DNA of 64,000 nt, taken from positions 24,163 to 88,162 of the forward strand of contig JBMNPB010000007.1 of the NCBI GenBank assembly GCA_050943375.1, in the 5' to 3' direction. The notes under the pieces were generated by a model. The model saw only the letters and a list, made by a program, of their open reading frames with translations, made no database searches and was not told the origin of the DNA. A program made the position numbers and the translations under genes. The stretch comes from a bacterium. Its GTDB lineage: Bacteria > Bacillota > SLNR01 > JBMNPB01. Positions 23,435 to 53,760 of the stretch are shown piece by piece. How positions within the stretch are numbered: the first letter of the stretch is position 1; the number at the start of each line of letters is the position of its first letter.

Positions 23435-23470
23435 TCTCTTACCTCCAAACCAATCGTTTCCATCGGCAGG

Positions 23471-34955: not shown

Positions 34956-35724
34956 CGTCGTACCTCCGGTTTATGAAGGATAATGTCCGGGCGGCGACCG
35001 CCCGGAAACACTGACCACAAGCGATATCTTGCTGCCGCGGCGCGGAATTATCGGCGACACGGGTTAGAATATTCCGCACCGCAGTGCGGATAAGGTGCGC
35101 GGCAGGATTGCCGCCACAGCGTGTTCTCCGGGACAGGGCGGCTTTGGTGATAATACCATGCTGATTTTGATTCATCTGCCCGGATTCTCCCCGGCAGGAC
35201 AATAACCCGCCGCCGCCAAAGCGCATTTCCCTTTGGTTTACCGCCGTTACCTCTGCGGGAGGGAACGACGGAAGCGTCGTTCCCTCCGAAAACAAACGCC
35301 GGGTTACTCAGGGTAGCTTTCATGATAAGCAAATTATTCCCTGCTATGATTGGGCGTAAGCAGAACAAGTCCGTCTCAGTATCTTCACCCGATTCGTTGT
35401 TCCCGCGCCAACATGGCCTGATCCGGATGACGCGGAAGCAGCAGCTTCCCCTACACGTCACCTGATTTCCCGCCTGAGTGTATGTTGCATGTATTGACTA
35501 ATTAACATCCCGGCCGGGAGCAATCATAGTCCTCTCATTTTAGCTGCTTTCTCCGGGGGAAATTGCCCATTTCCCCCTCCGGTTTCGATAACAGTTTGCC
35601 TCCCGCCGCACATATCTATCCATAAAATGGCACCCAACGGCGGAGACTTTCCTGCGCCGCAAATAATTGAAGCAACGGCAGCTCTGCGGGCAACACTCTC
35701 GGTATGTTAATAGCTTTCCCAAAC

Positions 35725-36468: not shown

Positions 36469-36589
36469 TGTCCTCACTCCCCCGGCCGCATTTTCGCTAA
36501 TAGGTAATAATTCTCGACAATTGCGATTATTCCTCCGCCGCGCCGAAAGTCGATCAATCGGCAACAAAGCAGCCGAAGAATTCAGGCGA

Positions 36590-37640
36590 CGTAACGTAGG
36601 GAACGACGTCCCTGTCGTTCCGGGCGGCAGCGCCGGTGTAAGCGCGTCCGGTCGAATAATGGAACAGCACCGGAAGGGAATTGAAACGGTGCCAGAGACT
36701 GCCGCGTCGCCGCAAAACGCAGCTCCTCGCAGTGACAATGGCTTTGCGATGCATGAAACAAAGGAGCGAATCCCGCGCCCGGTCAGGTCGCCGCCCGGTA
36801 CATCCCCAAAAGCAACGAAAATGCAGGCACAACGTAGGGAGCGACGCCCCGTCGTTCCGGGCAGTAGTACCGGTGAGGGGAAAACCGGCAAAGCGGTGGG
36901 GGTACTTATTAGGCGGGAGAGATTGCCGCGTCGCCGGAAGAGCGCCGGCTCCTCGCAATGACAAAAGTAAGGCTACGCGGGCTTTGGAAACCGGCGGCCG
37001 GGGCCCCGCGAGTTCCTGCGCCGCCACCTTTCCCTTGATAAGGGAGAGGGTACTGGCTCTCAGATATTGCCGGCTATTTGTTAAATTGCCCCTTTTTAAC
37101 AAGGGAGGTGTCCGGGGAACCCTTGCTTTCGGACATTGCCGCCTCATTTTTACGTTGTCCCCCTTGTCAAAGGGGGATGTCGCCGAATGGCGACAGGGGG
37201 ATTTGTTGGATTGGATGCTCCAAGGATTAGGCAGAGTGGTCGATTGCTGCCTATGGGGGATACAGGGACGGTGTTTCGGCAGGACAGCGGGCCGGGCGGG
37301 CATGGAAACCCGCCCCTACCGAGGAAAACGCGGAACGGTGGGGTCACCGTTCCTTACAACCGGGCGGGACAGCAGGTCGGCTGGGCGTTCGCCCGCTTCT
37401 CCGCCCAAACCGTGACGTAGGGAACCCCGTCGTTCCGGGCGGCAGTACCGGTGAGGGAAAAACCGGCAAAGCGGTGGTGGCACTTACTAGGCGGGAGAGA
37501 TTGCCGCGTCGCCGGAAGAGCGCCGGCTCCCCGCAATGACAAAAGTAAGGCTACGCGGGCTTTGGAAACCGGCGGCCGGGGCCCCGCGAGTTCCCGCGCC
37601 GCCCCATTGAAGAGGCCCGGGGCCTGCGCCCCGGGCTTGC
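36590..37640. repeat. non-coding island with at least four copies of repeat family A (GAGATTGCCGCGTCGCCGG..CCGGCTCCTCGCAATGACA..GGCTACGCGGG) plus a family B element (CCCCCTTGTCAAAGGGGG...TGTCGCCGAATGGCGACA)
   Basis: Family A cores lie at about 36695-36745, 36921-36965 and 37499-37545. Near-identical 150-bp units occur at 36825-36975 and 37419-37570. Family B lies at 37155-37205. Only repeat-derived ORFs are present. Confidence 0.8.
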
Positions 37641-37645
37641 CGGTA

Positions 37646-40447
37646 TTATCCGTTCTGCTCGACTATCACAATGTAGTTGTCGTAATCGTAATCCACATAA
37701 GCCCCCAAGGCCTCAGCGCAGAACCGGAAAGGAATCATTGTCCGGCTGTTCAAGATCTCCGGCGCCGTGTCGGACGTAACCCGGACCCCGTTCCGGTAAG
37801 CTGCCTTGTCGCCGATGTACAGGACGATCGTATTGCCGCCGAGCGTCGCCGTAATCTTCTGCCGCGCCGGATTGGAAGCATCATATTCCACATAAGCTCC
37901 CATCGCCTCCGCGAGAGCGCGGTAAGGAATCATTGTCCGGCCGGCAGTGATGTACGGGTGAACATCGGTGAAATCGATATATTTACCGTTGCACCGGACG
38001 AGCGGCCGGGTCGCCGTACCCTTGCGGGCGGTTTCGGCTGCCGTCGTGAAGGAATAAGTCGCCGCCTCGACCGCGTAGCCGTCCGCATCTTCCACATCAT
38101 CGGTGATGTACAGATAATACTTGGTTCCGTATTTCAAGTTGTTGTCGGGATCCACCGTCACCGTCCGGGTCGAGGAAGAGTAATCCACATCGGCCGCGAC
38201 TTTGGCACTGCTGCCGGCTTCTTTCAGATAAATATTGTCGTCATCAATGGTGGAGGACTTCATCGCCCGGGAGAACTTGAACGTAATCTCCTTTTCCACC
38301 GGCACTTTCGTCGCGCCGTCCGCCGGGCTGAGGGAAGATATTTTCGCCTTCTCCGGCGCTGTTCTGAACGTCCAGTTGGAGGCGTATACCGCTGTCCCGT
38401 ACTTGTCCTGGACGCCGGTGGTGACATAGACGGTGTATTCGGTGTCGTACGCGAGGGCGCTCTTCGGCTTCAGCGTTGCCATCCGATCTCCCGAGTCATA
38501 ATCGACCGTGGCGCTGATCTTGGTCGAGGAGCCGGCCTTGCGCAGGCAGATATTCGTCGTATTGATGGTGCTGGATTTCATCGCCGTGGAAAAGGTCATC
38601 TCGATCGTCCCGTCGACCGGGAAGCCGGAACTGCCCGGCGCCGGGGTGCGCTTGATGATGTGCGGGTAATCGTCGTCCATCGTCGTGAAGGACCACTCCA
38701 CCGCCTCTATCTCGTCGCCGTGTTCGTCTTCGACCTCATCGGTCACATAGACGGTGTAGCTCTCATTGTAGCGCAGGTTGCTCTTCGGAGTCAGTGTCAC
38801 CACCCGGGTCGACTCGTTGTACTCGACCGTGGCGGAAATCTTGCTGCTGTACCCGTCCCGGCGCAGAAATACGCTGCCGCTGTCAATCGTATCCTCGTCC
38901 ATATCATCGGAGAATTTGAACGTAATTCGCGTGTCCACCGGGACGTTCGTCGCGTCTTCGGCCGGATATTTATCCTGGACGCGGACATAGTCGGGGCTGG
39001 TCGTGAAATACCAGTTTTCCGCCGTTACCCGATTACCGCTGGTATCCTTCACGTTGTTAGTGATGTAAACATAATAAGTGGTGCTTGACTGCAGTTCGGC
39101 TTTCGGTGTCAGTATTACCGTCTTATTGGAATTGCTGAAGGAAAGCGTTGCACTTATCTTCGTGGAGGAGCCGGACTTCCGCAAATACACCGTGCTGCTC
39201 GTTACTGTTGAGGTGTTGAGCGGCTTATTGAAATCGATAATAATCGGCTGGTCAAACAGAACCCCGCTATCCTTGGCGTCCGGCTCCCGGTCGACAATCA
39301 CCGGCAGTGAGCCCGCCTCGGTGGTGAAAGACCAGGAGGTCGCGCCGACCGAGCGGCCGTTCACATCTTTAAGACGGTTGCTGCCGATAGACACCGTGTA
39401 GGTCGAACTGGCATCGAGAGCGGCCAGGGGTGTCAGGGTAATCTCGCAGCGGCCGTTCACGTTAACCGGCACCACCGAAGCCGCCACAACAGCGGTTCCT
39501 TTTTTCAGAGCGACACCGGCAGTAGTGAAATCGGAGGCCGCCAAATCAAGTTCTTTGTCAAAAATCATCTCGATATCGGAGTCCACATCCACGTTCTTCG
39601 CCCCGCTGCCCGGATTGCGGCTGACTACCGCCGCGGCTGTACTTGGGTTGCCTTGGGTGGTGAAGGTGTAGCTGGCTGCCGCCGCGGCGTTGCCGGCGAG
39701 ATCCTTGATGCCGCCCGCCGCCACCCAGACCTTGTATGTAGTGCTGTAAGCCAAATCACTGGCCGGGTCGAGAATTACCGTGTCACCGCCGGCCACACTC
39801 AGGGCGGCGCTGATCTTGGTGGAACTGCCGTCCTTGGTGAGGTAGATGCTGCTGCTGTTTACCGACCCGGGCAGGATATCCTCACTGAAGGCGACTTCGA
39901 TGTTGCGATTAATCGAAACATTATATTCGCTCCCCGCCGGATCGCAATCTTTGCCGACCAGTTGCGGCGCAGTGCTGTCCTTGGTGATTCCGTGAATGTC
40001 AAACCTGACCGAGCGCAGTGCCACCGACGTATCAGTATCCAGCAGCTGCAGATTCACGGTATATGTCTTGCTGGCCGAAGGTAAGCTGATGGTATTCAAG
40101 GTCGAAGCGGAGCCCGAAGTAATCCCGTCCGGATCGTAAAGCGGGTAATAATACCCGTCCGTGAATATCTCGCCCGTCAGCCGGTAATGCCCCCCCGGCC
40201 CGAGAATATGCTCGACCCTGAGCGTAAAATCGAGGTTGGCGTTCAGAGTAGGCGAATAACCGCTGCTCTCCAAAGTGGCGATGGAAGGCAGTTCAACTTC
40301 ATTCAGCCAGATTCCGGTGAATGACCCGCTCCCGGCCAGAACGGGCGCCGGAAGCGAAACTGACGCCGCGAAAACCAAGAGAGCGAGGATGGCCGCCAGG
40401 CCGGAACGGAAACTTCTTTTCAGGTAATGCATTGGATATCCCTCCAA
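37646..40447 (-). CDS. large cell-surface protein with tandem Ig-like (Big-type) repeats and a C-terminal copper-amine-oxidase-N-type wall-association domain pair
   Basis: The 933-aa ORF has a signal peptide (MHYLKRSFRSGLAAILALLVFAASVSLPAPVLA). It has at least five repeats of about 95 aa (V/IYLRKSGSSTKISATLS...TYYVYITNNVKD...W.FTT) and C-terminal TMIPYRALAEAMGAYVEYD / TMIPFRFCAEALGAYVDYD half-repeats. Confidence 0.8.
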   Translation of the reverse strand: MEGYPMHYLKRSFRSGLAAILALLVFAASVSLPAPVLAGSGSFTGIWLNEVELPSIATLESSGYSPTLNANLDFTLRVEHILGPGGHYRLTGEIFTDGYYYPLYDPDGITSGSASTLNTISLPSASKTYTVNLQLLDTDTSVALRSVRFDIHGITKDSTAPQLVGKDCDPAGSEYNVSINRNIEVAFSEDILPGSVNSSSIYLTKDGSSTKISAALSVAGGDTVILDPASDLAYSTTYKVWVAAGGIKDLAGNAAAAASYTFTTQGNPSTAAAVVSRNPGSGAKNVDVDSDIEMIFDKELDLAASDFTTAGVALKKGTAVVAASVVPVNVNGRCEITLTPLAALDASSTYTVSIGSNRLKDVNGRSVGATSWSFTTEAGSLPVIVDREPDAKDSGVLFDQPIIIDFNKPLNTSTVTSSTVYLRKSGSSTKISATLSFSNSNKTVILTPKAELQSSTTYYVYITNNVKDTSGNRVTAENWYFTTSPDYVRVQDKYPAEDATNVPVDTRITFKFSDDMDEDTIDSGSVFLRRDGYSSKISATVEYNESTRVVTLTPKSNLRYNESYTVYVTDEVEDEHGDEIEAVEWSFTTMDDDYPHIIKRTPAPGSSGFPVDGTIEMTFSTAMKSSTINTTNICLRKAGSSTKISATVDYDSGDRMATLKPKSALAYDTEYTVYVTTGVQDKYGTAVYASNWTFRTAPEKAKISSLSPADGATKVPVEKEITFKFSRAMKSSTIDDDNIYLKEAGSSAKVAADVDYSSSTRTVTVDPDNNLKYGTKYYLYITDDVEDADGYAVEAATYSFTTAAETARKGTATRPLVRCNGKYIDFTDVHPYITAGRTMIPYRALAEAMGAYVEYDASNPARQKITATLGGNTIVLYIGDKAAYRNGVRVTSDTAPEILNSRTMIPFRFCAEALGAYVDYDYDNYIVIVEQNG

Positions 40448-40899
40448 TTTTGAAATTCAAACTGCCGTTACCGGATAATGTCATCCCCCGCACCCCTCTC
40501 CGGGGCGATTCTCACCTCTGGCCATACTCCGGGCTGTGCCTCATCCACCCGCGCCGGCCGCAGGACATTGCTTGGGGCGCGGCGCGGGAACCGCAACCCT
40601 CACGCCCGCAATCGGGCGACGGGAATAATGTACTTGCCGGCAGGGCGTAAACCGCAGAAACGATCCCAGGATGACCGCCCTGACCTGAATATCCCTCATT
40701 CCCTGCCCTTCGCGTGCAACAAAAGCCGGGAGAGCCATTCCTCACCCCCTCGCTGCCTCCGCCAAAATTGGGCAAGGAGGAAAAGAAACGGGCCAAGAGC
40801 AGGCTGAGAGACGGTTAAAGACATGGCGACAAGATGAGAATGAGGACAGTAGAACGCGACATATCCGGTATTCACTTATTAATTCGGTAACCAGTCTAT

Positions 40900-41410
40900 T
40901 ATTTAGACGGAGGACGACCCTCCTTTGTTTCCTATTCTACCATTTATTTGTCGACTTTTTAAGACAAACCGGGAATTTCTCTGTCGCCGCCGGATAAAAA
41001 GCAGGAATCGCCCGGCGCATTCTTTGGAACGGGGCGACTCTTGCTGGATTTGAATGAAAGGACGCGAAAAAAGTTTGTCCGTTGACAAGGGGACAACGCA
41101 AATCTAAGCCTCCCTTGTCAAAGAGAAGTAGCGGCGCAGCCGTCGGTTTCCAATGCCCGCGTAGCCTTACTTTTGTCATTGCGAGGAGCCGGTGCTCTTC
41201 CGGCGACGCGGCAATCTCTCCCGCATAGTAAGTGCCACCACCGCTTTGCCGGATTTTTCCCTCACCGGTACTGCGGCCCGGAAAGACGAGGTTTCCTACG
41301 TAACGGTTTGAGCGGGGATGCGGGCAGGCACTCACACAGCCAATCCTCCTGTCGCCGATCGGCGCATCCCCCTTTGACAAGGGGGACAACATTAATCTAA
41401 GCCTCTCTTG
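40900..41410. repeat. repeat island: inverted family A copy (41150-41310) flanked by family B palindromes (41095-41125 and 41368-41400)
   Basis: The sequence is the reverse complement of the 37419-37570 unit. CCCCTTTGACAAGGGGGACAAC and CTTGTCAAAGAG motifs are present. Confidence 0.75.
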
Positions 41411-41789
41411 CCAATGGGAGGCGACAGCGAAGCCGGCGGAGGGACTCGGAGCACGGATTCCCTCGCCAGTAAAATCACCCGTATCGTCCCGCCTATGTCA
41501 CAATTCATGATAGAAATCCCGCCATTATCCGGCCTTTATCTGCTTTTCTCTTGCAATAACCGTTCTGACATCAATGCCCGCTTCATAATAAACCAAGGCG
41601 CTGACGTTATATCCGCGGTGTAAGTGCCGGCCTGCTTCTCTTTATGCTCGCACACCCTTCTTTTCAGGTTGTTGGTTATACCCGTGGACAGAACCGTATG
41701 AGTTTTGTTAGGCAGGTTATGACGAAATAATCCTTTGTCATTACAAGCACCTCTAAGCCAAAGATTACCGCGCCATGGGAAACAAGGGT

Positions 41790-42447
41790 TCCCGCCGCCT
41801 GAGTTTCGTTGCGAATAACTTGCTGCCGGGCAACGCGGGTACAAGAACTGATCCGGAGTTTGCCGCGTCGCCGGGAAAGCGCCGGCTCCTCGCAATGACA
41901 AGGGCCGGGCGATGCGGGTCCAAGGTTACGAAACCAAAGGGTTACATACTTCCGTGAAGGTATCTGCTCCCCAGGAAAGCTCTATCTGGACAATACGGAT
42001 TCGTGGCGCTCAGCCGGAGATTGCCGCGTCGACGGGAGAGCACCGGCTCCTCGCAATGACAGTAGTTGGGCGATGCGGGCCCAAGGTTACGAAACCTAAG
42101 GGTTACGTCCCTCAGTGAAAGTAGCAACTCTGCAAAACAAAACTATCTGGACAATGCGGGTACATGGCACTGAGCCGGAGATTGCCGCGTCGCCGGAACA
42201 GTGCCGGCTCCTCGCAATGACAGTAGTTGGGCGATGCGGGCCCAAGGTTACGAAACCTAAGGTTTACATCCTTCCGCGAAGGTATCTGCTCCCCAGGAAA
42301 GCTCTATCTGGACAATGCGGCTTCGTGGCGCTCAGCCGGAGATTGCCGCGTCGCCGGAAAAGCGCCGGCTCCTCGCAATGACAAGGGCCGGGCGATGCGG
42401 GTCCAAGGTTACGAAACCTAAGGTTTACATACTTCCGCGAAGGTATT
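41790..42447 (+). repeat. tandem array of about four units of about 160 bp, each containing a family A core
   Basis: Cores begin at about 41860, 42017, 42177 and 42339, with spacings of 157-162 bp. Each unit has the form gagattgccgcgtcgNcggRaRagcRccggctcctcgcaatgaca..gggcgatgcgggYccaaggttacgaaaccWaaggKttacRt..ggacaatRcgg..tcgtggcgctcagccg. The inter-core sequence is also conserved, so the array is not CRISPR-like. Confidence 0.8.
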
Positions 42448-42520
42448 ATGCAGGAAACTCACTCCGTACTACATACCATTCCCAATGAAGCCGGCGGCAT
42501 AGATGTGGGGTAACCCCGGA

Positions 42521-42556
42521 CGTAAAGGAAGACCCTCCATCACTGGAGGGTCTTCC
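42521..42556 (-). terminator. putative terminator after the 959-aa surface-protein gene
   Basis: A 13-bp perfect stem (ggaagaccctcca-tcac-tggagggtcttcc) sits 10 nt after the stop codon. The U-tract is weak. Confidence 0.45.
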
Positions 42557-42566
42557 GGATAGGCTG

Positions 42567-45446
42567 TTATTTCGTCAGGGTAATGACCTCGGTGCCGAAG
42601 TTGTAGTCGACATAGAACCCGAAGGCTTCACCGACGAAGCGGAGAGGCACAACGGTCCGGCCGTCAACGACCTTCGGAGCTACTTCGAGGGTCTGCTCGA
42701 CACCGTTCACCGAAGCGACGGTGGAACCGATGGTCAGCCAGACTTCGTCGACGGTATTCTCGTCAACCCGGAGCCGGTAGCAGACCTTGTCGGGAGCAAT
42801 GAACTCGACGTAGGCACCGATGGCTTCCGCGATGTAGCGGAACGGAACCAGAGTGCGGCCGTTCTCGGCGAACGGAGCAACATCGAGAGTGCTCATCGAG
42901 CCGTTGGCAACGGCGGTCTTGTTGCCGAGCTGCATGGTGATGACACCAGCGCCGGCAGCATCAAGAGAGACTTTGATTTCGCCTTCGGCATACTCATCTT
43001 TAACGTCGGTTTCGACCTTAACTGTGATCTTGCCGGTAGATACGGGCTTGATCTTGAAGGTAACCTGGCCGTTTTCGTCAGTCTCGCTCTCGGCGGTCAA
43101 AGGACCGGTGAGTTCGACATCCTTCTCAGCATACGGCTTACCATGAGCGTCAAGAACCGTAATCGTAACGGTGGACACAACGTCGACACCGATGGCCGCC
43201 GGGGAAGCGGTGATGCTCATGCCGACAACTTCGATCTCGGCAACTTCCACACGCGGGCCGTCATCGATCTCAACTTCGAAGGTCAGGAGCATCGGCTCGT
43301 CATCGTCATCCTCTTCGTAAGCGAGGATGTCGAATTCGGCCTCGCCGTCACCCATGTCGATATCGAACTCCTCCGCGTCGTCACCAATGTCTGCCAGTTT
43401 ATCGCCATCAATCGCAAGGGTGCAGTTGTCGGGAGTGATATACAGATACGCGTCTTCGATCACGCTGTCGTCCCGCGGGTCAACCAGCTTGACTTCCCAG
43501 TTTTCTTCAACCATGTAAGTCAGCTTGGTGTCTTCGTTGGGGAGAACGAGCTTCGGCGCGAGGACTTCGATAGTTGTCTTGCCGATGAACTCGCCGTTGT
43601 CGGTCTTGAAGACAAGGTCAAGCTCTTCCGCTTCGTCGTGGACAAAGGAGAAGGAGTAGACGTTACCGTCACGGTCGAGCTCGATGTCTTCGCCATCGAT
43701 GGTAACGTATGCATTGCTATCTTTCACATACGCGCCGTCCTCGTCCTTAACGGTGAATTCAACGTCTTCTTTTAGTCCGGCTACGAGCTGCTCAGGAGCG
43801 TCAACGTCGTAGACGTCCTCGCCTTCGACATCGATCTTCACGTAGGTCATTGGTGTTCCGTCAACCTTGGTCACCAGCACAAATGCGGTGCCGACTTCGT
43901 TGAAGCGGACAGTCCTTGTGTAAATGCCGTTGTTGATGTTGGTTTTGCTGGAATCGATTTCTTCGAAATCAATCCAGTCTTCGTCGTCATCATCGTACTC
44001 ATCCGCATCGTAGTCATTGATTGAGTCTGGATTAAAGACGTCATCCCAATCCCAGTCAAAATCTTCATTGTCAACTTTCAGATAGACGACCGCGTTGTTG
44101 ACCGGGGTCTCGTCGGTCTTGGTCACGACAGCCTTGAACTCGTACTTATCTTCATAAGTAGCGGTCTCCGGGGTTACAGTGACGACCCAACCGTCAACCT
44201 TGATCTTCTCGGTCTTGGTCACTTTGTCGCCGTCTACCATAGTCGCGACGGCGGTAACCAGGATCTCGCCACCGCACTCGGGAAGGAGTCCCTCAAAAGT
44301 ATATGAGTTATCGGGAATCGATTCATCATCAACTGTCGCATCTTCATCGATGCCGCAACCTTCAACTGTAATCTTAACCTTCTCGATGTTCTCGCCGATA
44401 CCGTCACCGTCGTCATCCCAGAACTCAACCTCGAGATCGAGTTCTTTGACCGCGTCGACTTCGGTGTCGCTGAGGGAAATGTTGAAGGAAGAAGGTCTGA
44501 CGACTTTGATGGTGGTTTCACCTTCGTAGTCTCCATCTTTATCCGCTGTTACCTTGGCAGTACCAGCCTTCGGGAATTTTACAGTGATAGTGACTTTGCC
44601 GCCATCGACTGTCGTCCCAGACGCTTCGTAATCACCGAGAGTGATTTCGACGTCAGCGCCAATTACCGGCTTGCTGCCGTCTTTTACAGTAACTTCAATT
44701 ACTTCCGCCCGATCTCTGATGACGGAGGACTTGTTGACTTTAACTGACAGCGTGTCTTTCGCTGCAACTTCAAATTCATCGTATTCGATTTCGTTGTCAT
44801 CGCCGTCATCGCCACCAATCCACGGGCACTCGAGCATTACCACATAGTCGCCAGCCTTATCAAACTTGGCAGCCAGAGCGAAGGAACCGTTGGAAGCCGC
44901 TCTGGTCGAGGCAATAGCGTCACCCCTGCTATCGCCGGATTTGACAATGTACACATATGGTCTGTCTTCGAGGCTGTAGCCGGCGCCGTCTTTTACAGTA
45001 CCGGTGATGGTCTTGGTGTCACCGATCTTGATTGACGGAATGGTCAAGCTCATGTCATGCTTGGTTGTGACAGTCGTTGAAGCTAATCCGTCAGGAATAG
45101 CGCTCTCTACAAGGTCTACCACATCATCATCGATTACAATTTTGTAATCCTCGTTGTGGTCATCCGCGGCATTGATTACAACATTGAAAGAACCCGAGGA
45201 GAAAGGTCCTCCATGCGCGACGCGCTTGTTACTTCCCACCTCAAACACACCGTAGTACAAATCATCTCTGTTCGCCTTATCATCTTTCAATACAGTAACA
45301 CGAACAGTATTGGTAGTGGCTGTGAGTATGTACTCGTCGGCTTCGACCTTATAGACCGGGCCGTCAGCAAAGACCGGCGCAACGACACCGAATGTGCTGA
45401 GAAGCATAGCCAATGTCACAACTATGGCTATAAGTTTCTTCTGCAT
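42567..45446 (-). CDS. large, highly acidic cell-surface protein with a C-terminal copper-amine-oxidase-N-type domain pair
   Basis: The 959-aa ORF has a signal peptide (MQKKLIAIVVTLAMLLSTFGVVAPVFA) and Asp/Glu-rich beta-type repeats. The C-terminus carries TLVPFRYIAEAIGAYVEF / RTVVPLRFVGEAFGFYVDY, matching the wall domain of the 933-aa protein. Confidence 0.8.
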   Translation of the reverse strand: MQKKLIAIVVTLAMLLSTFGVVAPVFADGPVYKVEADEYILTATTNTVRVTVLKDDKANRDDLYYGVFEVGSNKRVAHGGPFSSGSFNVVINAADDHNEDYKIVIDDDVVDLVESAIPDGLASTTVTTKHDMSLTIPSIKIGDTKTITGTVKDGAGYSLEDRPYVYIVKSGDSRGDAIASTRAASNGSFALAAKFDKAGDYVVMLECPWIGGDDGDDNEIEYDEFEVAAKDTLSVKVNKSSVIRDRAEVIEVTVKDGSKPVIGADVEITLGDYEASGTTVDGGKVTITVKFPKAGTAKVTADKDGDYEGETTIKVVRPSSFNISLSDTEVDAVKELDLEVEFWDDDGDGIGENIEKVKITVEGCGIDEDATVDDESIPDNSYTFEGLLPECGGEILVTAVATMVDGDKVTKTEKIKVDGWVVTVTPETATYEDKYEFKAVVTKTDETPVNNAVVYLKVDNEDFDWDWDDVFNPDSINDYDADEYDDDDEDWIDFEEIDSSKTNINNGIYTRTVRFNEVGTAFVLVTKVDGTPMTYVKIDVEGEDVYDVDAPEQLVAGLKEDVEFTVKDEDGAYVKDSNAYVTIDGEDIELDRDGNVYSFSFVHDEAEELDLVFKTDNGEFIGKTTIEVLAPKLVLPNEDTKLTYMVEENWEVKLVDPRDDSVIEDAYLYITPDNCTLAIDGDKLADIGDDAEEFDIDMGDGEAEFDILAYEEDDDDEPMLLTFEVEIDDGPRVEVAEIEVVGMSITASPAAIGVDVVSTVTITVLDAHGKPYAEKDVELTGPLTAESETDENGQVTFKIKPVSTGKITVKVETDVKDEYAEGEIKVSLDAAGAGVITMQLGNKTAVANGSMSTLDVAPFAENGRTLVPFRYIAEAIGAYVEFIAPDKVCYRLRVDENTVDEVWLTIGSTVASVNGVEQTLEVAPKVVDGRTVVPLRFVGEAFGFYVDYNFGTEVITLTK

Positions 45447-46454
45447 CTTACGAATTTCCCTCCCTTTGATATTTCTTCTTGCTCACGATCCTCCTGAGCC
45501 AAACACGGAAAGACAAATGAGTTTATTTTCTACCCATCCCCTCCCTTCGGAAGTTTCATATTCCTTACAAAACCGATTACCTATCTATATGCCTATACAC
45601 CTTCCGGTAAGATTGTCCGACCAAAAGACTAAATCTTACGCCGGAAGGCGTCGCAGCCTTGTGAAGCAGAGTGTCCGAAGTCCGGAGCGACGAAACCGGG
45701 AACCGGGTCCGAGGCTTCAGACTATTGACTTGATTCCTGATTTCGGTTGTCAAAGATCAGCCGCCGGGAATAAAGTGGCTTAATATGATATCTTTTCTAC
45801 ACCGCGCAGATAATTCCTGCTCCGCCGGCCGCCGCGCCGATAAGTAAGTTTTGGGGCGGCATGGATAATCTGGCAACGCATTTTCCATATATTAGTACGG
45901 AGCTGACCCCGGATATAGAACGCTGAATTGTCAAAGAGCGGAATGCGTAAACAAATTGATATCCGAGAAAGACCGGACATTTGAAACAGGGGAAAAATAA
46001 GCCAAGCATGGAGTTTACATACAATTATAGCATGCAATGGGTTAAGCGTCAACGAATTCTCTGGCGGAGAGCCGTCAGAATAATTCCCCATTATTTCCGG
46101 ACAACTCGTTTACCGGCCAGGCGCAGAAAAATTCATTTTATTCCCTGTAACTGAATACTTATTCTGGACACTGCTACCGATTCCTGCCGGATTCCGGTGG
46201 ATTCTTCAATTTTTTTACATGATACCGGGAGACAAGTTTTGTTGCTGCCTTTTATTGTCGTAAAGAGGCTGGGGGAAGTTCCCCGTAATCGCCGGATTTG
46301 TGAAAAAAATTTACGGTAAACCGGAAAGGGGTATGCAGAGAGGCATTGTTATATATTATGAAGGAACCGGCGGAAAGTACCGTCTCCTGCCGCCGGGCAT
46401 CAAGAGAAATGGCCAGGTGCATAGAGTAGTTTCCTGCATCAGAAGGGAGGAAAC

Positions 46455-46520
46455 CCGAGATTGCCGCGTCGCCTTCTTCTGAGAGTATTACTGCCGGGCG
46501 GCTCCTCGCAAAGACACAGG
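46455..46520 (+). repeat. family A repeat copy (degenerate)
   Basis: aaacccgagattgccgcgtcgcc...gctcctcgcaaagacacaggcaaggctacgctggc. Confidence 0.7.
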
Positions 46521-46783
46521 CAAGGCTACGCTGGCAAAGTAAAGGCGGGTCACCGGCCCCGACCGGTTGAACCCTGATACCCTGCCCTTCTCCAGAGATC
46601 AAGCGATAAGTGCGGGTCGCAGGGAACGACGCCCCGTCGCTCCCTGTTGCGGTGCTTGCTTGTCGGTCAAACCTGATCCATTTGTAGGGATGGCCCTCGT
46701 CGTTCCGGACCGCAGCGCCATGCCGGCAGGCGTATCCCCCGCCCGATACACCCTCTCCCCGGACGCCGTCCGTCCCTCTCCGT

Positions 46784-47485
46784 TTACGGCAATACCGGGT
46801 ATCCCGGCAAATAAGGAGCGATGCCGGCAAGCAGGAAGACGGCGATGAGCGCCACGGCGATCAGGAATACAATCAGAGCCGCAACCGGGACGAGGATAGT
46901 AAGCACGGCGCGGCCGGTGGAGAGGCCGTGCACTGCCTGGACGGCATTCACCATGAGGACAACGGACCAGATGAAGACAGCAAAAGCAAGGATATTATAT
47001 ATCCACTCCAGACGCCCCCGGGCAAGCAAGGCAGCCGGCGCGAGGAAGATGCCCGGCAGGCCGGTAAAGCCGAGAGCGACGAAAAGATGATAGCCGCGCC
47101 CGGTGCCGCCGAAGAATTCGGCCAGCAGATGCAGGACGGCCGTGCTCAGGAACCAGCCGGCGGCGCCGCCCAGCAGACTGAGCGGGAATAGGACGAAGAG
47201 CAAGACAGACCGGACCGCCGCCGGCAGTTCGTCACCCGCGACGTAGCCGGCCGAGACGGCCGAGAGAAGCTGGGTAATGAGAAAGACAAGCACGGCCGCC
47301 CCCAGGGGGTGGTCGCGGGCTATCTTCGCGAACGTCGCGGCCGGGGTGAAGAGGACGCCGTACAGGAGCTCGAAGAAGGTGTCCCGGCCGGGCGGCGGCG
47401 GATTCTCCGCCGGGGACGCCGCGGGGGCCGGCCGGTCGGCGGCCGGGGTATTCCCGGCATCGAATTGGTTTTCGTTGTCGTTCAT
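46784..47485 (-). CDS. Yip1-domain membrane protein
   Basis: The start was moved to MNDNENQFDAG at 47485, which has the RBS AAGGAGG. The product is a Pro/Ala-rich N-terminal tail followed by five TM helices of Yip1 type (FFELLYGVLFTPAATF...). Confidence 0.65.
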   Translation of the reverse strand: MNDNENQFDAGNTPAADRPAPAASPAENPPPPGRDTFFELLYGVLFTPAATFAKIARDHPLGAAVLVFLITQLLSAVSAGYVAGDELPAAVRSVLLFVLFPLSLLGGAAGWFLSTAVLHLLAEFFGGTGRGYHLFVALGFTGLPGIFLAPAALLARGRLEWIYNILAFAVFIWSVVLMVNAVQAVHGLSTGRAVLTILVPVAALIVFLIAVALIAVFLLAGIAPYLPGYPVLP

Positions 47486-47689
47486 GGTTTCAGCCTCCTT
47501 GGTGGTAAATTGCCGGACCATCGCCGCCATTGCTCCAGGCGCGCCTGATAACAGCGCCGTCCGTCTTGTTTCCGGCACGCTCCCGGGGCGTCCCGATCCT
47601 CACCCCTATCCCCTCTCCCGCATCGGGAGAGAGGAATTAGCGCAGTTGGGCGGCGGGATAACCGCATCGGGAAGGAGAAGCGGGCAGGC

Positions 47690-47830
47690 GCCCGTGCAGC
47701 CTTACTTTTGTCATTGCGAGGAGCCGGTGCTCTTCCGGCGACGCGGCAATCTCTCCCGCATAGTAAGTGCCCCCGCCGCTTTGCCGGTTTTGCCCCGGCC
47801 GCACCGCGGCCCGGAGCGGCGAGAGCGTCG
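47690..47830 (-). repeat. family A repeat unit (inverted orientation)
   Basis: ccttacttttgtcattgcgaggagccggtgctcttccggcgacgcggcaatctctcccgcatagtaagtgcc... is the reverse complement of the 37419-37570 unit. Confidence 0.75.
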
Positions 47831-47947
47831 CTCCCTACAATTACGGCCGGGTTTTGCCCTGGCCGGCACCGCGGCACGGACGGCGGGGGCAAGCCCAACG
47901 AATACGTCCCGCCGCCCAGTCCCGAAAAGAGGAGCCGGGGATGAGGG

Positions 47948-48883
47948 TTAATTCCCGAAATCCACTCCATAACCCGGCAGCAGCAAAAACCGCGCGGGGA
48001 CGATAGGCTCGGCGGCGGCCGGCAAGCCGGCCCGGCTGCCGAAGCCGGAACGGAGCATCTGCCAGATGGAAGCCCTCCCGTATTCGCGGACGGTATATCT
48101 CTCCCCGAGGCCGGCCGCCGCGGCGGCCTCGTCGATGGCGTCATAGAAATTGCCCAGCGTGTCGACGAGGCCGAGGTCAAGCGCCTGCCGGCCGGTGAGA
48201 ATCCGCCCGTCGGCGATTTCCCGCACCCGGGCCGGCTCCATCCCCCGGCCCGCGGCGACGACGTCAACGAACTGCTCGTAGACGTCGTCCACCATCGCCT
48301 GCAGCAGCTCCTTCTCCGCCTCCGTCATCTCCCGGGCCGCGGAGCCCATATCCTTGTGCGGGCCGCTCTTGATCACATGCATCTCGATGCCCGCTTTCCG
48401 GTACAATTCCTCGTAATTGGAATATTGGATGATTACCCCGATGCTGCCGGTGGTCGTCGACGGATTCGCCACGATCTTGTCAGCCAGAGCCGCCACCCAA
48501 TAGCCGCCGGAGGCGGCCGTGTCGCCCATGGAGGCGACGACTGTCTTGCCGGCTTCCCGCAGGCGGCCCACTTCCACCCCGATTTCCTGCGCGGCGGCGG
48601 AACTGCCGCCGGGGCTGTTGATGCGCAGGACAACGGCGCGCACCGCCGGATCCTCCCGCGCCTGCTTCAGCTGCGCAATGACAGTGTCGGAGCCGGCGAC
48701 AGCCCCGCCCAGCAGGCTCGAACCGCCGGGCCCGCCGAGAATCATGCCTTCAATATAGATAACGCCGACGGTGCGGCCAGCGGCGGCGCCGGCCGGGCGC
48801 CGATCCGGACGGGCCAGCAGTCCGGCGGCGGTCAGGATGATAACGGCGGCCAGGACGAGCCCGCCGAGTATTTTTTTATTCAC
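47948..48883 (-). CDS. sppA: signal peptide peptidase SppA (S49 family, 36K type)
   Basis: The 311-aa ORF has an N-terminal TM, VGVIYIEGMI..., and the serine-site region (AVVLRINSPGGSSAAAQEI). Confidence 0.85.
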   Translation of the reverse strand: MNKKILGGLVLAAVIILTAAGLLARPDRRPAGAAAGRTVGVIYIEGMILGGPGGSSLLGGAVAGSDTVIAQLKQAREDPAVRAVVLRINSPGGSSAAAQEIGVEVGRLREAGKTVVASMGDTAASGGYWVAALADKIVANPSTTTGSIGVIIQYSNYEELYRKAGIEMHVIKSGPHKDMGSAAREMTEAEKELLQAMVDDVYEQFVDVVAAGRGMEPARVREIADGRILTGRQALDLGLVDTLGNFYDAIDEAAAAAGLGERYTVREYGRASIWQMLRSGFGSRAGLPAAAEPIVPARFLLLPGYGVDFGN

Positions 48884-49142
48884 TTTCCCTTCCCTCCCGC
48901 ATCATCTTCTGCCGCGCCGGCGCGGCGCGGTCAACTGTATTATATCCGAGGCGAAAGCGGATAGTCAAAACCGGGCGGTAATTTTCCTGAGTCCATCACT
49001 CAAAAAATAAACCCGTATCCATATAGACAGTAAGGACATTTATTTATCCGTGCCCGAAAGTGAATGATCAGACAGAGCGGCAGCAACAATGAAGCGCAGG
49101 GCTACTGACCCCGCGCTCTCCCTTGGCTGACCTCAGCACCGC

Positions 49143-49517
49143 CTACTCCGCCGACCGGAAATAAATGTCCCGGCACTTACCGCAGAAAGCGCACTCCACG
49201 GCGTGGACCTTGTCCTGGGTCAGCCCCCATTCGCGCAACTCTTTCAGAACCGGCGCCAGACTCGCGCCCATCCCGCTCAGGGAATATTCGACCCGGGGCG
49301 GGACTTCCGGGAAGACCCGGCGGCGCACCAGACCGTCCGCCTCCATCTCCCGCAGCTGCTGGGTCAGGACCTTGGTGCTGACGGGCGCGATTTCCCGGGC
49401 GAGCTGGCCGTGACGCAGCGGCCCGCGGGACAGCGCTTTCATAATCAGGATTTTCCATTTGCCGCTGAGCAGCGAGAGAGTCGATTCAATGGGACATTTT
49501 CCTATCGTTTCGCGCAT
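49143..49517 (-). CDS. HxlR-family transcriptional regulator
   Basis: The 124-aa ORF has the HxlR signature (CPIESTLSLLSGKWKILIMKAL...RVEYSLSGMG). It is divergent from the racemase gene. Confidence 0.8.
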   Translation of the reverse strand: MRETIGKCPIESTLSLLSGKWKILIMKALSRGPLRHGQLAREIAPVSTKVLTQQLREMEADGLVRRRVFPEVPPRVEYSLSGMGASLAPVLKELREWGLTQDKVHAVECAFCGKCRDIYFRSAE

Positions 49518-49674
49518 GGCTGTCGCCTCCGTTTCCCCGATAGTTACCTATGGGTCGGCAAGGTTACAAAAAAGTGCCTGCTTGCCAGATTTCCCTTTTC
49601 AGTATATTTTTATCTTAGCCCGGCGTCAATCGGCAAAGCGGCGGGCGGACGAAAATCCTCAGGAGGTGCTTGCC

Positions 49675-50367
49675 ATGAAAAAAGCCGGTCTGGTCGGCGG
49701 AATCGGCCCGGCGTCAACGCTGGAGTATTACCGGGGAATCACCGAAGGTTACCGGGAGAGAGTAGGCGGCGGCAATTATCCCCCTCTCATCATCGACAGT
49801 CTTAATTTGGCCGAGATCTACGACCTCGTCGACAACAAGCAGTGGGACGAATTCGCCGCCCGTTTCGTCCGGTCGATAAAGAGTCTCGCGGCCGGCGGGG
49901 CCGAATTCGCCGCCATGGCGGCCAACACGGCCCATATCGTCTTCGACGCAGTCCGGAGTCAGTCCCCTCTGCCTCTGGTCAGCCTCGTCGAGGAAACGAG
50001 CAAAGCCGCCCGGGCCAAAGGCTGCCGGCGCATCATCGTCTTCGGCACCGGGTTCACCATGCGCAGCGGCATGTACACGGAAGCGCTGGCAGAAGCGGGA
50101 ATCGAAGCCTTCGTGCCCGAGCCGGACGAACAGTCGGCCATCCACAACATCATTTTCCCCCACCTGGAAGAGGGAATCGTCCTGCCGGAAGAGAAGGAAA
50201 CGATGCTGAATATCGCCCGCCGCCTGATCAGCGAAAAGAAGGCGGACGCGCTGCTCCTCGGCTGCACGGAACTGCCGCTGATCATCAAGCCGGAAGATCT
50301 GGCCGTCCCGGTTCTGGATACGACCCAAATCCACATTGACGCCATTTTGGACAACATCCTGGCCTGA
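49675..50367 (+). CDS. Asp/Glu/hydantoin racemase-family protein (aspartate racemase-like)
   Basis: The start was moved to MKKAGLVGGIGPASTLEYY at 49675, which has the RBS GGAGGT. Two catalytic-Cys regions typical of the family are present (GCTELPLI). Confidence 0.8.
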   Translation: MKKAGLVGGIGPASTLEYYRGITEGYRERVGGGNYPPLIIDSLNLAEIYDLVDNKQWDEFAARFVRSIKSLAAGGAEFAAMAANTAHIVFDAVRSQSPLPLVSLVEETSKAARAKGCRRIIVFGTGFTMRSGMYTEALAEAGIEAFVPEPDEQSAIHNIIFPHLEEGIVLPEEKETMLNIARRLISEKKADALLLGCTELPLIIKPEDLAVPVLDTTQIHIDAILDNILA

Positions 50368-50415
50368 ACGCCGAAGCCCGAGCGGCGGCGAAAAACCGGA
50401 CGGGGAGGAAGAAAA

Positions 50416-50856
50416 ATGTATCTTTACACTATTGGCTTTACGCAGAAGAGCGCCGCGGAGTTTTTTTCGCTCTTAACCGAAAATGATGTCGCCGTCCTGG
50501 TGGACGTCCGTCTGAACAATTCCTCCCAGCTGGCCGGGTTTTCCAAAGGCAGGGATCTGGAATATTTCCTGCGGACAATCTGCGGCTGCCGCTATGTCTA
50601 TGCGCCGGAGCTCGCGCCGGCGAAGGAGATATTCGACGCCTATAAAGGCAAAAAAATTTCCTGGCCGGAATTTGCCGACCGCTTCCGGGCGCTCATCCTG
50701 GAAAGAGGCGCCCTGGACGCTTTCCCGGCGGCGCCCGGCGGAGCGGAAAGAGTCTGTCTCCTGTGCAGCGAACCAACGCCGGAGCATTGTCACCGGCGGC
50801 TGCTGGCGGAAATGCTGCGGGAGAAACAGCCGGAGATAATCATCAACCATCTCTAG
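50416..50856 (+). CDS. DUF488-family protein
   Basis: The 146-aa ORF reads MYLYTIGFTQKSAAEFFSLL...VLVDVR...LLCSEPTPEHCHRRLLAE, the DUF488 signature. Confidence 0.7.
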   Translation: MYLYTIGFTQKSAAEFFSLLTENDVAVLVDVRLNNSSQLAGFSKGRDLEYFLRTICGCRYVYAPELAPAKEIFDAYKGKKISWPEFADRFRALILERGALDAFPAAPGGAERVCLLCSEPTPEHCHRRLLAEMLREKQPEIIINHL

Positions 50857-50913
50857 ACGGGGAATAAAAGGCGGACGGCTGCTGGCCGTCCGCCTTTCTT
50901 TTTTCACCCCTAT

Positions 50914-52203
50914 TTACTGCCAGACCGACTCGGTATATTTGTTGCTCGCGTTCCAAAGCAGGAATTCCTCCACCCCCAGTTCCGCCAAGGCCCGGATCTG
51001 GGCCTCGACTTCCGTCTTGCCGTAAGGGATCGCTCCGTCCACCCATTTCACCGCCGTGAAGTCCTGCAGCCAGGGACGGATAATAGCCTTCCGGGGCAGC
51101 GGCTCGTTCCTCTCCAGCGCGTCGGTGATGGCGTTGTGCACGGTCCCGTGGGGATGCGCGTCCGGCACCGCGTAGCCGAAATATCCTCTGCCGTAATGGC
51201 TGGGATAAACCATCGGGCAGATGTAGTCGGTGGCGGCGCTGATTGCCTCCCATTCCTGGCCGATGTCGTCCGTGTCGCCGGGCGATGTGGCGATGACCCC
51301 GAAAACGTCGGCACTGACGAAGACGCCGTAAGGAGCAAGCTCCTCCCTGGCGTAAGCAAGGAATTCGGCGACAGCCTGCGCCTTCGTCCGGTCATTCTGC
51401 TGCGGAAAGGCGGCTTCGGCGTTGACCCGTTTGGCGTTGTCCGGGAAGCGGACATAATCGAACTGAATCTCCCTGAAGCCGTTGAGGGCCGCCTCCTTGG
51501 CAATGGCAATATTGTAATCCCAGACTTTCCGGTCGAAAGGATTGACCCAGGAAATGCCGTCCTTGTCCTTCCAGACGCCGCCGCTCTTCCTCTGAATGGA
51601 AAGATCGGCCCGGTGGCTGGAAAGGTTGGGGTCCTTAAAGGCGACGATGCGGGCGATGGGATAGATTTCTTTCTCTTTCAGTACCGCCAGCAGCGCCCCT
51701 ACATCCTTAATCCGTACGTAACGATTCGCCCCGACCGCCTCGGCCATGGCGATATCGCTCCGGTACGTCATCAGGCCGTTGTCGTCTTTGACGTCAATCA
51801 CGAGAGAATTCAGGCCGGAGTTTTCGACCAGAGCAAGCAGGTGATTGAAGCGGGAAGCAAGTCCGGCGATATTGCCGGTGATGTACAGGCCTTTTGCCTT
51901 AACCGGCGGATTGTCAGGCAGGACGGCGGGCGGCAGGGGTATGTACAGATCGCCCAATTCCGCGCGCCGGCGCTCCTCCGCCTCGGCCCGCAGCCGCTCC
52001 TCTTCGGCGCGGCGCGCTTCCTCCGCCAGGCGGGCTTCTTCGGCCAGGCGCTGCTGCTCCTCGACCCGGCGCTGTTCGGCCGCCAATTTCCGGGCATCGC
52101 TGAAAGCCCGCACCTGAGTGACAGCGACAAACATCAGACAAACGAGCAGGAAGGAAGCGGCAAGGAAACGAAGACGGAAACGGGGCTTTGGCTTGGCCTG
52201 CAC
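50914..52203 (-). CDS. putative glycoside-hydrolase-like TIM-barrel protein (GHL/DUF4015-type) with an N-terminal anchor and an Arg/Glu-rich coiled segment
   Basis: The 429-aa ORF has a TM anchor, then an RRVEEQQRLAEEARLAEEARRAEEERLRAEAEERRRAEL low-complexity region, then a GHL-type domain (WVNPFDRKVWDYNIAIAKEAALNGFREIQFDYVRFP). Confidence 0.6.
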   Translation of the reverse strand: MQAKPKPRFRLRFLAASFLLVCLMFVAVTQVRAFSDARKLAAEQRRVEEQQRLAEEARLAEEARRAEEERLRAEAEERRRAELGDLYIPLPPAVLPDNPPVKAKGLYITGNIAGLASRFNHLLALVENSGLNSLVIDVKDDNGLMTYRSDIAMAEAVGANRYVRIKDVGALLAVLKEKEIYPIARIVAFKDPNLSSHRADLSIQRKSGGVWKDKDGISWVNPFDRKVWDYNIAIAKEAALNGFREIQFDYVRFPDNAKRVNAEAAFPQQNDRTKAQAVAEFLAYAREELAPYGVFVSADVFGVIATSPGDTDDIGQEWEAISAATDYICPMVYPSHYGRGYFGYAVPDAHPHGTVHNAITDALERNEPLPRKAIIRPWLQDFTAVKWVDGAIPYGKTEVEAQIRALAELGVEEFLLWNASNKYTESVWQ

Positions 52204-53149
52204 GGTATCATTCTCCTTTGCGCGATAGTGTCGGATATTAAGTAAACAATTCCGATATTACCGCCAAATCCCTGCCGTTTCGACAAAATATCGGGATGAT
52301 TTTTTTCACCGGAAAGCAAAGGTAAAGCAGGCCGGAAACAGATACCAGGACAGAGCCAGAAATAATTAATGAGGGCTGAGATTCGCGTTTCCGAAATCTT
52401 GCCGCCGGATGAGCCGAAAAAAACGCCCGGAAACAAAAAACAAAAGCCGGGACGGCAGGCAATCCGCAGGGCCGCAAGATGAAGTCATATATTCTCATTC
52501 TTGCCCCTCTCCCACATCGGGAAAGGAGATGCGGAGTTATTTCGCAGTCTTTGCGGCGGAGGTGTGACCGGCAAAGGAACGGACCACCCAGGCACTGCGT
52601 GCCGTCCCTCCGCCGGAGGGGAATGGAAAGCCGGGCAATGATTACGGTCCGCGCTTTGCGCCGCCGCTGCCGCGGAGAAAAAAATTGGCGGGCAATTAAA
52701 ACAATACCGTCAACAATTCCCCTCTTCTGGAGGGTGGCCGGAGAAGCCGGACGGGGTGGCCGCGGGCGGTGTTCCGCGCTGCCCCGCTTTTATCGATGGG
52801 AAGTAGTAAGTCAAAAGCCGCAAGCGGAACGGCGGGACGATAGCGATGGCAAAGACGGCAAACGGGTCCCGTTACAGGCCGGACTGACGGCAGGCTGCCG
52901 GCCGCCGCGTCCCCGGGCGCGCGGGCTTTGCCGCTGCTGCGGGATAATGCGGGAGCCGCCCTTCCGGTCGGCCCCCGATATATACCATAATTCCCGGCTG
53001 GTGGACGGGAAGAAACTGGGAGAGCTTCGGGAAGAAAACGGGAATGATGCGGAGAAGACGGCGGCCGGGAGAAGGCGGCTTGGGTTGAAACGTTGAGGCC
53101 GGAATGTATGAAATGCGTTCCCTCCGTAAGAAGGAGAAGGGGCAGGGCG

Positions 53150-53720
53150 CGAAACCCGAGATCGCCGCGTCGCCGCTCACGGCTCCTCGCGATGACATTT
53201 GCAGGGCAATGCTGGCCATAAGGTACAAAAGTCAAGAGTACCGTTTCGCCGCCCGCGGCTCCTCATGATGACAAGGGCTTGGCTATGCAGGCGCTAACCC
53301 TCGCTCCTGCCCGCCGTCTGCGTATGGATTGGCTTTCGGGAGCGGCGTCTCGGCCAATTCAAATCCCTCCGTCAGCTTCGCTGCCACCTCCCTTTAACAA
53401 GGGAGGCTTCTGGGGACTCTGGCTCTCAGGCATTACCTACTTCCGTTTACGTTGTCCCCCTTGTCAAAGGGGGATGTCGTCAATAGGCGACAGGGGGATT
53501 TGCTTCAACGCAAGGCTATCATCGTATCAGTATGGCACTGCCGGATGCCAAATCCCTCCGTCAGCTTCGCTGTCACCTCTATTTGACAAGGAGACTACCA
53601 AAGCCTGCGGTGGCTGTGGCAGATATGGTATTGAGAGCCGTCGCTTTTTCGGGAGAAGCAGTATCCTTGGACGTTGTCCCCCTTTGACAAGGGAGGCAGG
53701 CAAAATCCGCAAAGAGAAAC
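53150..53720. repeat. repeat island with family A (53158-53198 plus a half copy at 53245-53275) and family B (53385-53410, 53452-53500, 53585-53600, 53672-53700) elements
   Basis: gagatcgccgcgtcgcc..ggctcctcgcgatgaca; ttgtcccccttgtcaaagggggatgtcgtcaataggcgacagggggatttg. The 53395-53505 stretch is homologous to 37080-37205. Confidence 0.75.
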
Positions 53721-53760
53721 GCCCGCGCCGGTTCGCTTGGCGCGGGCGTAAAAGATCACC

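Follow-up and report, generated by a model that had tools for sequence, protein, structure and literature searches.

Five gene-free islands, together 6,667 bp long, are found around two paralogous surface-protein genes in a 64,000-nt stretch of contig JBMNPB010000007.1 (positions 24,163 to 88,162), a metagenome-assembled contig from a member of the Bacillota. The whole stretch is called the window; all coordinates below are positions in it, and with 4.9 kb beyond it about 69 kb of the genome were covered in total. The islands are BIME/NIME-like, partly tandem mosaic clusters of repeats flanking the two genes, and their signature component is a short oriented hairpin tagged by TGTC. One of them hosts in addition the remains of a gene encoding an Ssn-like GIY-YIG nuclease, and intact relatives of this gene are flanked by similar hairpins in other genomes. 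The islands are best read, with a probability of about 0.78, as non-coding spacers enlarged by clusters of Ssn-type repeats, similar to REP (repetitive extragenic palindromic) sequences, and by the long upstream regions of envelope genes.

Gene content of the islands

The limits of the islands were set through the start codons of the HD-GYP, 928-aa and Yip1 genes, read off the sequence.

36469-37645, 1177 bp: island 1, delimited by the 928-aa gene (stop) and the HD-GYP gene (start); repeats account for more than half of its length
40433-42566, 2134 bp: island 2, delimited by the 959-aa gene (stop) and the 928-aa gene (start); a unique upstream part (40433-41100) is accompanied by repeats, a tandem array and the ssn-like pseudogene
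45447-46783, 1337 bp: island 3, made of an AT-rich unique region (45447-46440) upstream of the 959-aa gene and, next to it, of diverged repeat copies
47486-47947, 462 bp: island 4, between the stop of the S49 peptidase gene and the start of the Yip1 gene; one family-A repeat copy
52204-53760, 1557 bp: island 5, with unique sequence (52204-53140) upstream of the DUF4015 gene, and then repeats, located downstream of the MBL-fold gene

A first-pass annotation of the window had reported about 6.5 kb of non-coding DNA in five islands within 17 kb, and the islands are real; none of them contains an intact gene. A crude codon-usage gene caller, trained on the long genes of the window, assigns to coding sequences 59% of the interval 36470-53760 and 84% of the remaining window, and places no gene in the islands. 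Four of the five largest gaps of the window sit inside these 17 kb. The same annotation described the rest of the window as tightly packed. This holds in part: gaps of 420-938 bp are found elsewhere in the window, and one of 769 bp (34956-35724) abuts the region.

No bona fide protein-coding gene was found in the islands by any of the searches carried out. All the island open reading frames (ORFs) of at least 30 aa lack a gene-like codon score: the best of them, 49 aa long, has a log-likelihood ratio of 9.4, versus values of about 26-430 in accepted genes of similar or greater length. No Pfam match was obtained when the islands were all scanned in six frames. Similarly, none of the stop-free translations of at least 28 aa from the unique parts of the islands matched, at E<=1e-3, any of 5.8 billion proteins. 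The islands are genuine non-coding intergenic spacers, and their low coding density is explainable and only moderately unusual. The earlier statement that all ORFs in the islands are either repeat-derived or antisense has to be corrected in one point, because a GIY-YIG pseudogene located in island 2 had been overlooked. In annotation the islands should stay free of hypothetical ORFs, and the interval 41528-41745 should be flagged as a pseudogene.

Hairpins and other repeats of the islands

The signature module of the islands has the organization TGTC-ATTGCGAGGAGCCGG-loop-CCGGCGACGCGGCAAT-CTC, and is an oriented hairpin of 40-60 nt, in which a 5-bp stem starting with AT is separated by an internal loop from a second stem of 4-5 bp, and is followed by the tail CTC. 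It may also be written TGTCATTGCGAGG...GCAATCTC, and copies are assigned to the strand reading TGTC...GCAATCTC. Eleven full copies and one half copy were found, all of them in the islands and at least one in each; dinucleotide shuffles predict 0.06-0.33 by chance. All eleven fit the consensus TGTC-(A/C/T)T(T/C)GC...GC(A/G)A(T/A)-CTC, and feature both the TGTC tag and the C which immediately follows the palindrome. These elements are called SRM-like hairpins below, by analogy with the SRM hairpins recognized by Ssn. Their positions, and those of the repeats with which they are interspersed, are given below.

36695-36737, minus: SRM-like hairpin, copy 1
36919-36963, minus: copy 2
37497-37541, minus: copy 3
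41174-41218, plus: copy 4, downstream of the pseudogene, with the tag facing away from the gene
41856-41900, 42017-42061, 42178-42222 and 42339-42383: copies 5-8, in the 161-nt tandem array
46457-46516, minus: copy 9, with an enlarged central insert
47709-47753, plus: copy 10
53158-53197, minus: copy 11, followed by a right-half relic at 53257-53273
41853-42446: tandem array, 3.7 units of 161 nt, each made of one SRM-like hairpin and about 116 nt of spacer
36809-37025, plus: family-A mosaic unit, composed of a GTAG-tagged hairpin, a spacer, an SRM-like hairpin and a tail
37391-37603 (plus), 41139-41325 (minus) and 47690-47838 (minus): other family-A copies
37145-37205, plus: family-B double hairpin (TCCCCCTTGTCAAAGGGGGA and TGTCGCCGAATGGCGACA), fold z -5.5
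41338-41395 (minus) and 53442-53502 (plus): other family-B copies; half-copies at 53360-53402 and 53549-53591

The TGTC orientation lies on the minus strand in nine of the eleven hairpins. Judging from gene orientation and GC skew, this strand is probably the leading-strand sequence, that is, the lagging-strand template. The bias is not significant, because several copies are tandem or segmental duplicates.

Family A has units of about 190 nt, and holds four of the SRM-like hairpins. Its GTAG-GGAACGACG..CGTCGTTCC hairpins have a fold z of -2.1. Family B is represented by three full and several half copies, and G+C-rich C5 hairpins of this type are found only in the islands. The first-pass annotation had placed both families in the islands, and the dispersed repeats are confined to these: the sole other self-match in the window (10942-10981) is a local palindrome. 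Repeat modules make up roughly a third to half of the islands. Family-A copies are 92-95% alike over 106-122 nt, and this similarity, together with the confinement of the repeats to 17 kb, suggests recent local duplication or gene conversion. A related hairpin is found in the gap which abuts the region, located between the DUF5693 and HD-GYP genes (34956-35724): it has the form GGGAACGACG-GAAG-CGTCGTTCCC, and resembles the GTAG-type module of the islands. The same gap features a 137-aa ORF (35048-35461, minus) which has no Pfam match and a low coding score.

Among three explanations left unranked by the first-pass annotation, one is a hotspot for repeat proliferation. The repeat content bears this out, and gives it a composition: Ssn-related (CGTC/TGTC-tagged) hairpins, GTAG-tagged REP-like hairpins, a double-hairpin family and a dead ssn-like gene. 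A second suggestion, that the islands accommodate unrecognised non-coding RNA genes, is improbable. Long ORF-free and partly structured stretches, the strongly folding family-B hairpins among them, are what such genes would look like, but a search of the whole window against Rfam gave no match at gathering thresholds, nothing credible emerged at E<=5 in the interval 35.5-54.5 kb, and no tRNA or tmRNA gene was detected by scan. The best match at E<=5, to the RT-3 RNA within the tandem array, scored 20 bits against a gathering score of 40.5, and was discarded as fortuitous. Moreover, the structured pieces are multi-copy palindromes present in both orientations, and therefore fit DNA repeats better than RNA genes.

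Part of this organization could in principle have been created during assembly, by repeat-induced chimeric joins or wrong copy numbers. The sequence comes from a metagenome-assembled genome, the copy number of the tandem array is hard to assemble, and a break in an independent short-read assembly coincides exactly with the edge of a repeat. This explanation has little probability, however. Unique sequence, in which gene order and strand are consistent, lies on both sides of each island, and the collapse of repeats cannot generate the unique parts of the islands. Exact-match look-ups retrieved two short contigs of the same organism. A Logan contig from this organism, obtained independently, is 100% identical to the window over 2,435 bp (47850-50284), and stops at the repeat edge 47850, as expected of multi-copy sequence.

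The ssn-like pseudogene and GIY-YIG genes flanked by hairpins

The coding remnant in island 2 (about 41528-41745, minus strand) was recognized by joining three reading frames. The stitched translation is a GIY-YIG protein of 73 aa, matching PF01541 at E 2.7e-9 with 37.6 bits, above the curated cut-off. Relative to intact homologues it carries two frameshifts, has lost about 15 codons internally near the C-terminus, and features a replacement of the second catalytic tyrosine, that of the YIG motif (LYTG changed to LSTG). Because of these lesions the sequence is classified as a pseudogene, and not as a bona fide gene; the local copy is dead. The product is 51-65% identical to 95-aa GIY-YIG proteins from many phyla, among which Planctomycetota (Jettenia, Kuenenia), Chloroflexota, Nitrospirota, Deltaproteobacteria and Poribacteria. 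The 95-aa protein is not represented by any NCBIfam model, and the only solved structures are the UPF0213 entries 1zg2 and 1ywl.

The pseudogene is bracketed by inverted arms (41156-41218 and 41856-41918) which are 83% complementary, and have tags pointing outward. The upstream arm coincides with the first unit of the tandem array. One of these brackets has been amplified into the 161-nt array.

The same association is found in other genomes. In four of them, retrieved through an exact protein match, GAGATTGC..CTCGCAATGAC elements directly flank the intact gene. A scan performed with the alignment of the 95-aa family identified 80 metagenome loci hosting intact homologues, and 72 of these carry a motif sharing the ATTGC...GCAAT frame. 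The motif is concentrated near the gene, with 7-8 copies per kb in the nearest 100 nt and about 0.1 per kb at distances over 1 kb. Inverted copies prevail upstream (45 vs 12) and direct copies downstream (44 vs 18), and the (T/C)GTC tags therefore face outward. The distance between the start of the motif and the first base of the stop codon is 3-12 nt in 31 of 54 loci, the typical form being TGAGATTGC. In this subfamily the stop codon often lies inside the conserved repeat. The inner stem reaches at least 5 bp in 32% of the instances, against 14% in shuffles, and dozens of distinct stem sequences are represented. Rfam has no family covering the motif in 20 related loci. At some loci (L072, L089 and L064, for example) hairpins form arrays of four or five, or the same hairpin pair is duplicated on both sides of the gene.

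Two of the related contigs deserve mention for their contents. A Candidatus Jettenia contig hosts, near the ssn-like gene, a c-di-GMP-I riboswitch (81.9 bits, 12-98) and an IS110-family transposase gene (3453-4463). A contig from a Sumerlaeota-labelled metagenome-assembled genome, which encodes the closest relative of the S49 peptidase (64%), features three ATTGC-type hairpins in 3.4 kb (317-450, 1770-1810). The ATTGC-type motif is present, with this contig, in at least one related lineage.

Searching plasmid records with the 95-aa protein by tblastn retrieved 32 records, many of which from the genera listed for CGTC-tagged REPs by Di Nocera, De Gregorio and Rocco (2013, PMC3733652). In all six proteobacterial loci analysed (Azospirillum lipoferum, Neisseria gonorrhoeae, Sinorhizobium meliloti, Novosphingobium, Rhizobium and Sphingobium) canonical CGTC REPs, their tags facing outward, lie on both sides of the GIY-YIG gene. 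The link between small GIY-YIG nuclease genes and such hairpins is already published (Chenal et al. 2025, Nat Commun 16:2388, PMC11893778). Ssn enzymes are single-domain GIY-YIG proteins of about 94 aa (cd10448), which bind the NTS/SRM hairpin on single-stranded DNA only, and cut a few nt upstream of it, on one strand only; the genes are arranged as NTS-ssnA-NTS, and most of the described homologues are from Gram-negative bacteria. Neisserial NTS repeats are clustered next to genes for membrane proteins, and natural transformation is modulated by them. Ssn activity depends most critically on the bases immediately preceding the palindrome and on the C which immediately follows it (PMC11893778).

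The 95-aa profile matches the NTS-flanked ORF of N. gonorrhoeae with an hhalign probability of 99.7% and 48% identity, and the window element is therefore filed under the Ssn/SRM kind. The stitched pseudogene itself is 33% identical to this ORF (E 1e-12). The similarity extends to organization, as a small, apparently single-domain GIY-YIG gene is bracketed in both cases by inverted oriented hairpins, and the repeats are nearly all intergenic and clustered beside surface- or membrane-protein genes. In the region covered, all eleven window hairpins are intergenic and flank the 928-aa and 959-aa surface-protein genes. Both activity-critical features, the (C/T)GTC tag and the C after the palindrome, are conserved. 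By analogy with the characterised Ssn enzymes, an active homologue would bind the window hairpin on single-stranded DNA, and would cut a few nt upstream of the tag. Differences are also evident. The closing stem of the window motif is ATTGC/GCAAT, its internal loop is asymmetric and its inner stem varies; the host is a Spo0A-encoding member of the Bacillota, and the local gene is a pseudogene.

CGTC REPs are described as having a CGTC or TGTC tag, a perfect stem of 8-9 bp starting with A-T, a loop of 4-5 nt and a short tail fitting CCA, and as elements which 'apparently lack a dedicated transposase' (PMC3733652). The window hairpins share with them the terminal tag, the A-T-starting stem, the short 3' tail and the frequent head-to-head pairing, but their stem is interrupted and their tail is CTC. 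Similarities to REP/RAYT systems, REPINs, BIMEs and neisserial NIMEs are more general, and concern the presence of a nuclease- or transposase-like gene flanked by inverted palindromes. As in REP/RAYT systems, BIMEs and NIMEs, solo repeats are found in mosaic intergenic clusters with other modules, the GTAG-tagged hairpins of the islands included. The enzyme is however a GIY-YIG protein, and not a HUH tyrosine transposase, and a scan of 40 called genes of the window revealed neither a RAYT nor a Y1 transposase domain.

Several observations weigh against regarding the islands as Ssn-type repeat clusters. No intact nuclease gene was found in the window, nor in the 4.9 kb beyond it, and the local copy is inactivated; an active ssn gene, if any, would lie outside the region covered. 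Repeats detected by self-BLAST cover about 30-35% of the islands, and about 40% of the sequence is unique. No close relative spanning the islands was found, the best GTDB relative of the S49 peptidase being 64% identical, and the junctions across repeats are putative, as they are taken as assembled in a metagenome-assembled contig. A Logan relative, 82% identical at the nucleotide level, ends at about 55.3 kb, short of the islands, and has no copy of the motif. The window hairpin is weak as single-stranded DNA (z -1.0 to +0.1 versus shuffles), and the case for a hairpin rests therefore on the conserved architecture, with the variable inner stems of other loci, and not on stability. Repeat boundaries are ragged: clean terminal inverted repeats and target-site duplications are missing, and copies diverge at different points on both sides. 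For the same reason the elements were not assigned to MITEs (miniature inverted-repeat transposable elements), which they resemble in being short, non-coding, multi-copy and intergenic.

The published SRM pattern, HGTCWYN(0-2)YYVSBRHN(0-5)WNVSBRGN(0-2)RNCYNB, is also unfavourable, as it matches none of the eleven window copies and, among the related loci, only four of 80. It does match the positive controls, which are from Azospirillum, Neisseria, Rhizobium and Sinorhizobium. The pattern was built by hand from 29 genomes (Chenal et al. 2025), and its failure is therefore taken as the sign of a variant motif, and not as evidence against membership in this kind. The pattern misses a large subfamily, and censuses based on it undercount Ssn/repeat pairs, because 72 of the 80 loci carry the ATTGC-type motif and only four match. 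Two matches to the pattern were detected in the window (47562-47595 and 53878-53911; 2 vs 0.33 expected in shuffles). They are unrelated to the repeat family, and are probably due to chance.

Surface-protein genes and their upstream regions

The genes flanked by the islands, and the features of their upstream regions, are as follows.

37646-40432, minus: 928-aa surface protein, with a signal peptide, six Big_5 domains and a C-terminal Cu_amine_oxidN1 domain
42567-45446, minus: 959-aa paralogous surface protein, with Ig-like domains and a C-terminal Cu_amine_oxidN1 domain; GC 0.52
35725-36468: HD-GYP gene, start read from the sequence
46784-47485: Yip1 gene, start read from the sequence
42527-42556, minus: GC-rich hairpin directly after the stop of the 959-aa gene, terminator-like, with a weak T tract
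40433-41100, 45447-46440 and 52204-53140: unique stretches upstream of the 928-aa, 959-aa and DUF4015 genes, respectively
46024-46052, minus: candidate sigma-70-like promoter, TTGACG-17-TGnTATAAT, 11/12, a consensus match only, which would give the 959-aa gene a leader of about 570 nt
40934-40962, minus: weaker candidate promoter, 9/12 with an extended -10, a consensus match only, which would give the 928-aa gene a leader of about 490 nt

The 928-aa gene actually starts with the ATG at 40432, upstream of which a GGAGGG ribosome-binding site is found. The name of surface-protein genes is fair, because Ig-like domains, and a copper-amine-oxidase-N1 domain at the C-terminus, are present in both large proteins. 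The unique sequence directly upstream of the 928-aa, 959-aa and DUF4015 genes amounts to about 2.6 kb, and most likely contains their promoters and putative leaders of about 0.5 kb.

It may be asked whether the islands are mainly regulatory DNA, that is, long promoters and 5' leaders which control or stabilise the mRNAs of highly expressed envelope genes, the repeats being incidental. This is possible, though less than probable. The location of the three unique stretches, directly upstream of minus-strand genes, speaks in favour of it, as do the strong sigma-70-like match 570 nt upstream of the 959-aa gene, the weaker one 490 nt upstream of the 928-aa gene, and the folding of the putative leader of the latter, which is better than that of 100 out of 100 shuffles (z -2.56). 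But the promoters are consensus matches, and the folding of the other two stretches is unremarkable (z -1.4). The three putative leaders have no sequence in common, and no cis-regulatory match was found in Rfam. Furthermore, repeats located downstream of genes make up islands 1 and 4, as well as the distal half of islands 2, 3 and 5. The long regulatory leaders evoked by the first-pass annotation are plausible for the 2.6 kb of unique DNA, where their support consists of promoter consensus matches and weak fold scores only.

The interval 45447-46250, upstream of the 959-aa gene, is AT-rich as originally noticed, with a GC of 0.459 versus 0.583 in the window. Over the whole interval 42567-46250 the values are 0.52 in the gene and 0.46 in the 800 bp upstream, to be compared with a window mean of 0.58 and with 0.57 in the paralogue. 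The low GC may reflect the horizontal acquisition of the gene together with its control region. This hint of foreign origin, and the presence of one pseudogene, would also suit islands born as a graveyard of decayed protein genes, either remnants of a larger mobile element or lost paralogues of the surface proteins. Such an origin is scarcely credible, since the six-frame Pfam scans and, for the unique parts, the comparison with 5.8 billion proteins (E<=1e-3) were both empty, and no frame features a codon bias.

The window has a GC of about 58%, and nearly all its genes lie on the minus strand. It encodes Spo0A, and the host is a spore-forming member of the Bacillota; the best named relatives of its PBP1A protein, about 50% identical, are from Thermincola, Gelria and Desulforamulus. 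The interval 25-35 kb is a cell-wall polysaccharide cluster, with genes for a CsaB-type pyruvyl transferase, glycosyltransferases, MurJ, a Wzy-like protein and a DUF5693 protein. A low-GC patch (0.47-0.51) at 10982-14600 includes genes for a STAND/AAA NTPase-like protein and for a protein of the aminoglycoside-phosphotransferase family, and three gaps of 260-700 bp; the island repeats are absent from it. An AcrB-type RND pump and a HlyD-type adaptor are encoded at 19174-24754, followed by a 427-aa protein lacking a Pfam match. The latter could be an outer-membrane channel, unexpected in classical monoderm Bacillota.

With the islands regarded as spacers enlarged by Ssn-type repeats and long upstream regions, the low-density region becomes a named object, a set of Ssn-type hairpin clusters in a lineage of the Gram-positive type. 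A bolder interpretation, advanced tentatively and rather unlikely at present, is that the clusters are functional: variant ATTGC-type Ssn hairpins would bracket the two S-layer-like genes in a repeat-gene-repeat layout, as NTS do with surface-antigen genes in pathogenic Neisseria, and an Ssn enzyme encoded elsewhere would cut them as single-stranded DNA, tuning the recombination or replacement of surface genes. If this were true, Ssn-based control of gene flow would extend beyond Gram-negative bacteria, and the variant motif would represent a new pair of enzyme and site specificity, common in Planctomycetota, Chloroflexota, Nitrospirota and Deltaproteobacteria. The placement of the hairpins around surface-protein genes echoes that observed in Neisseria and, if functional, would indicate that these repeats are generally linked to the dynamics of surface-antigen loci.

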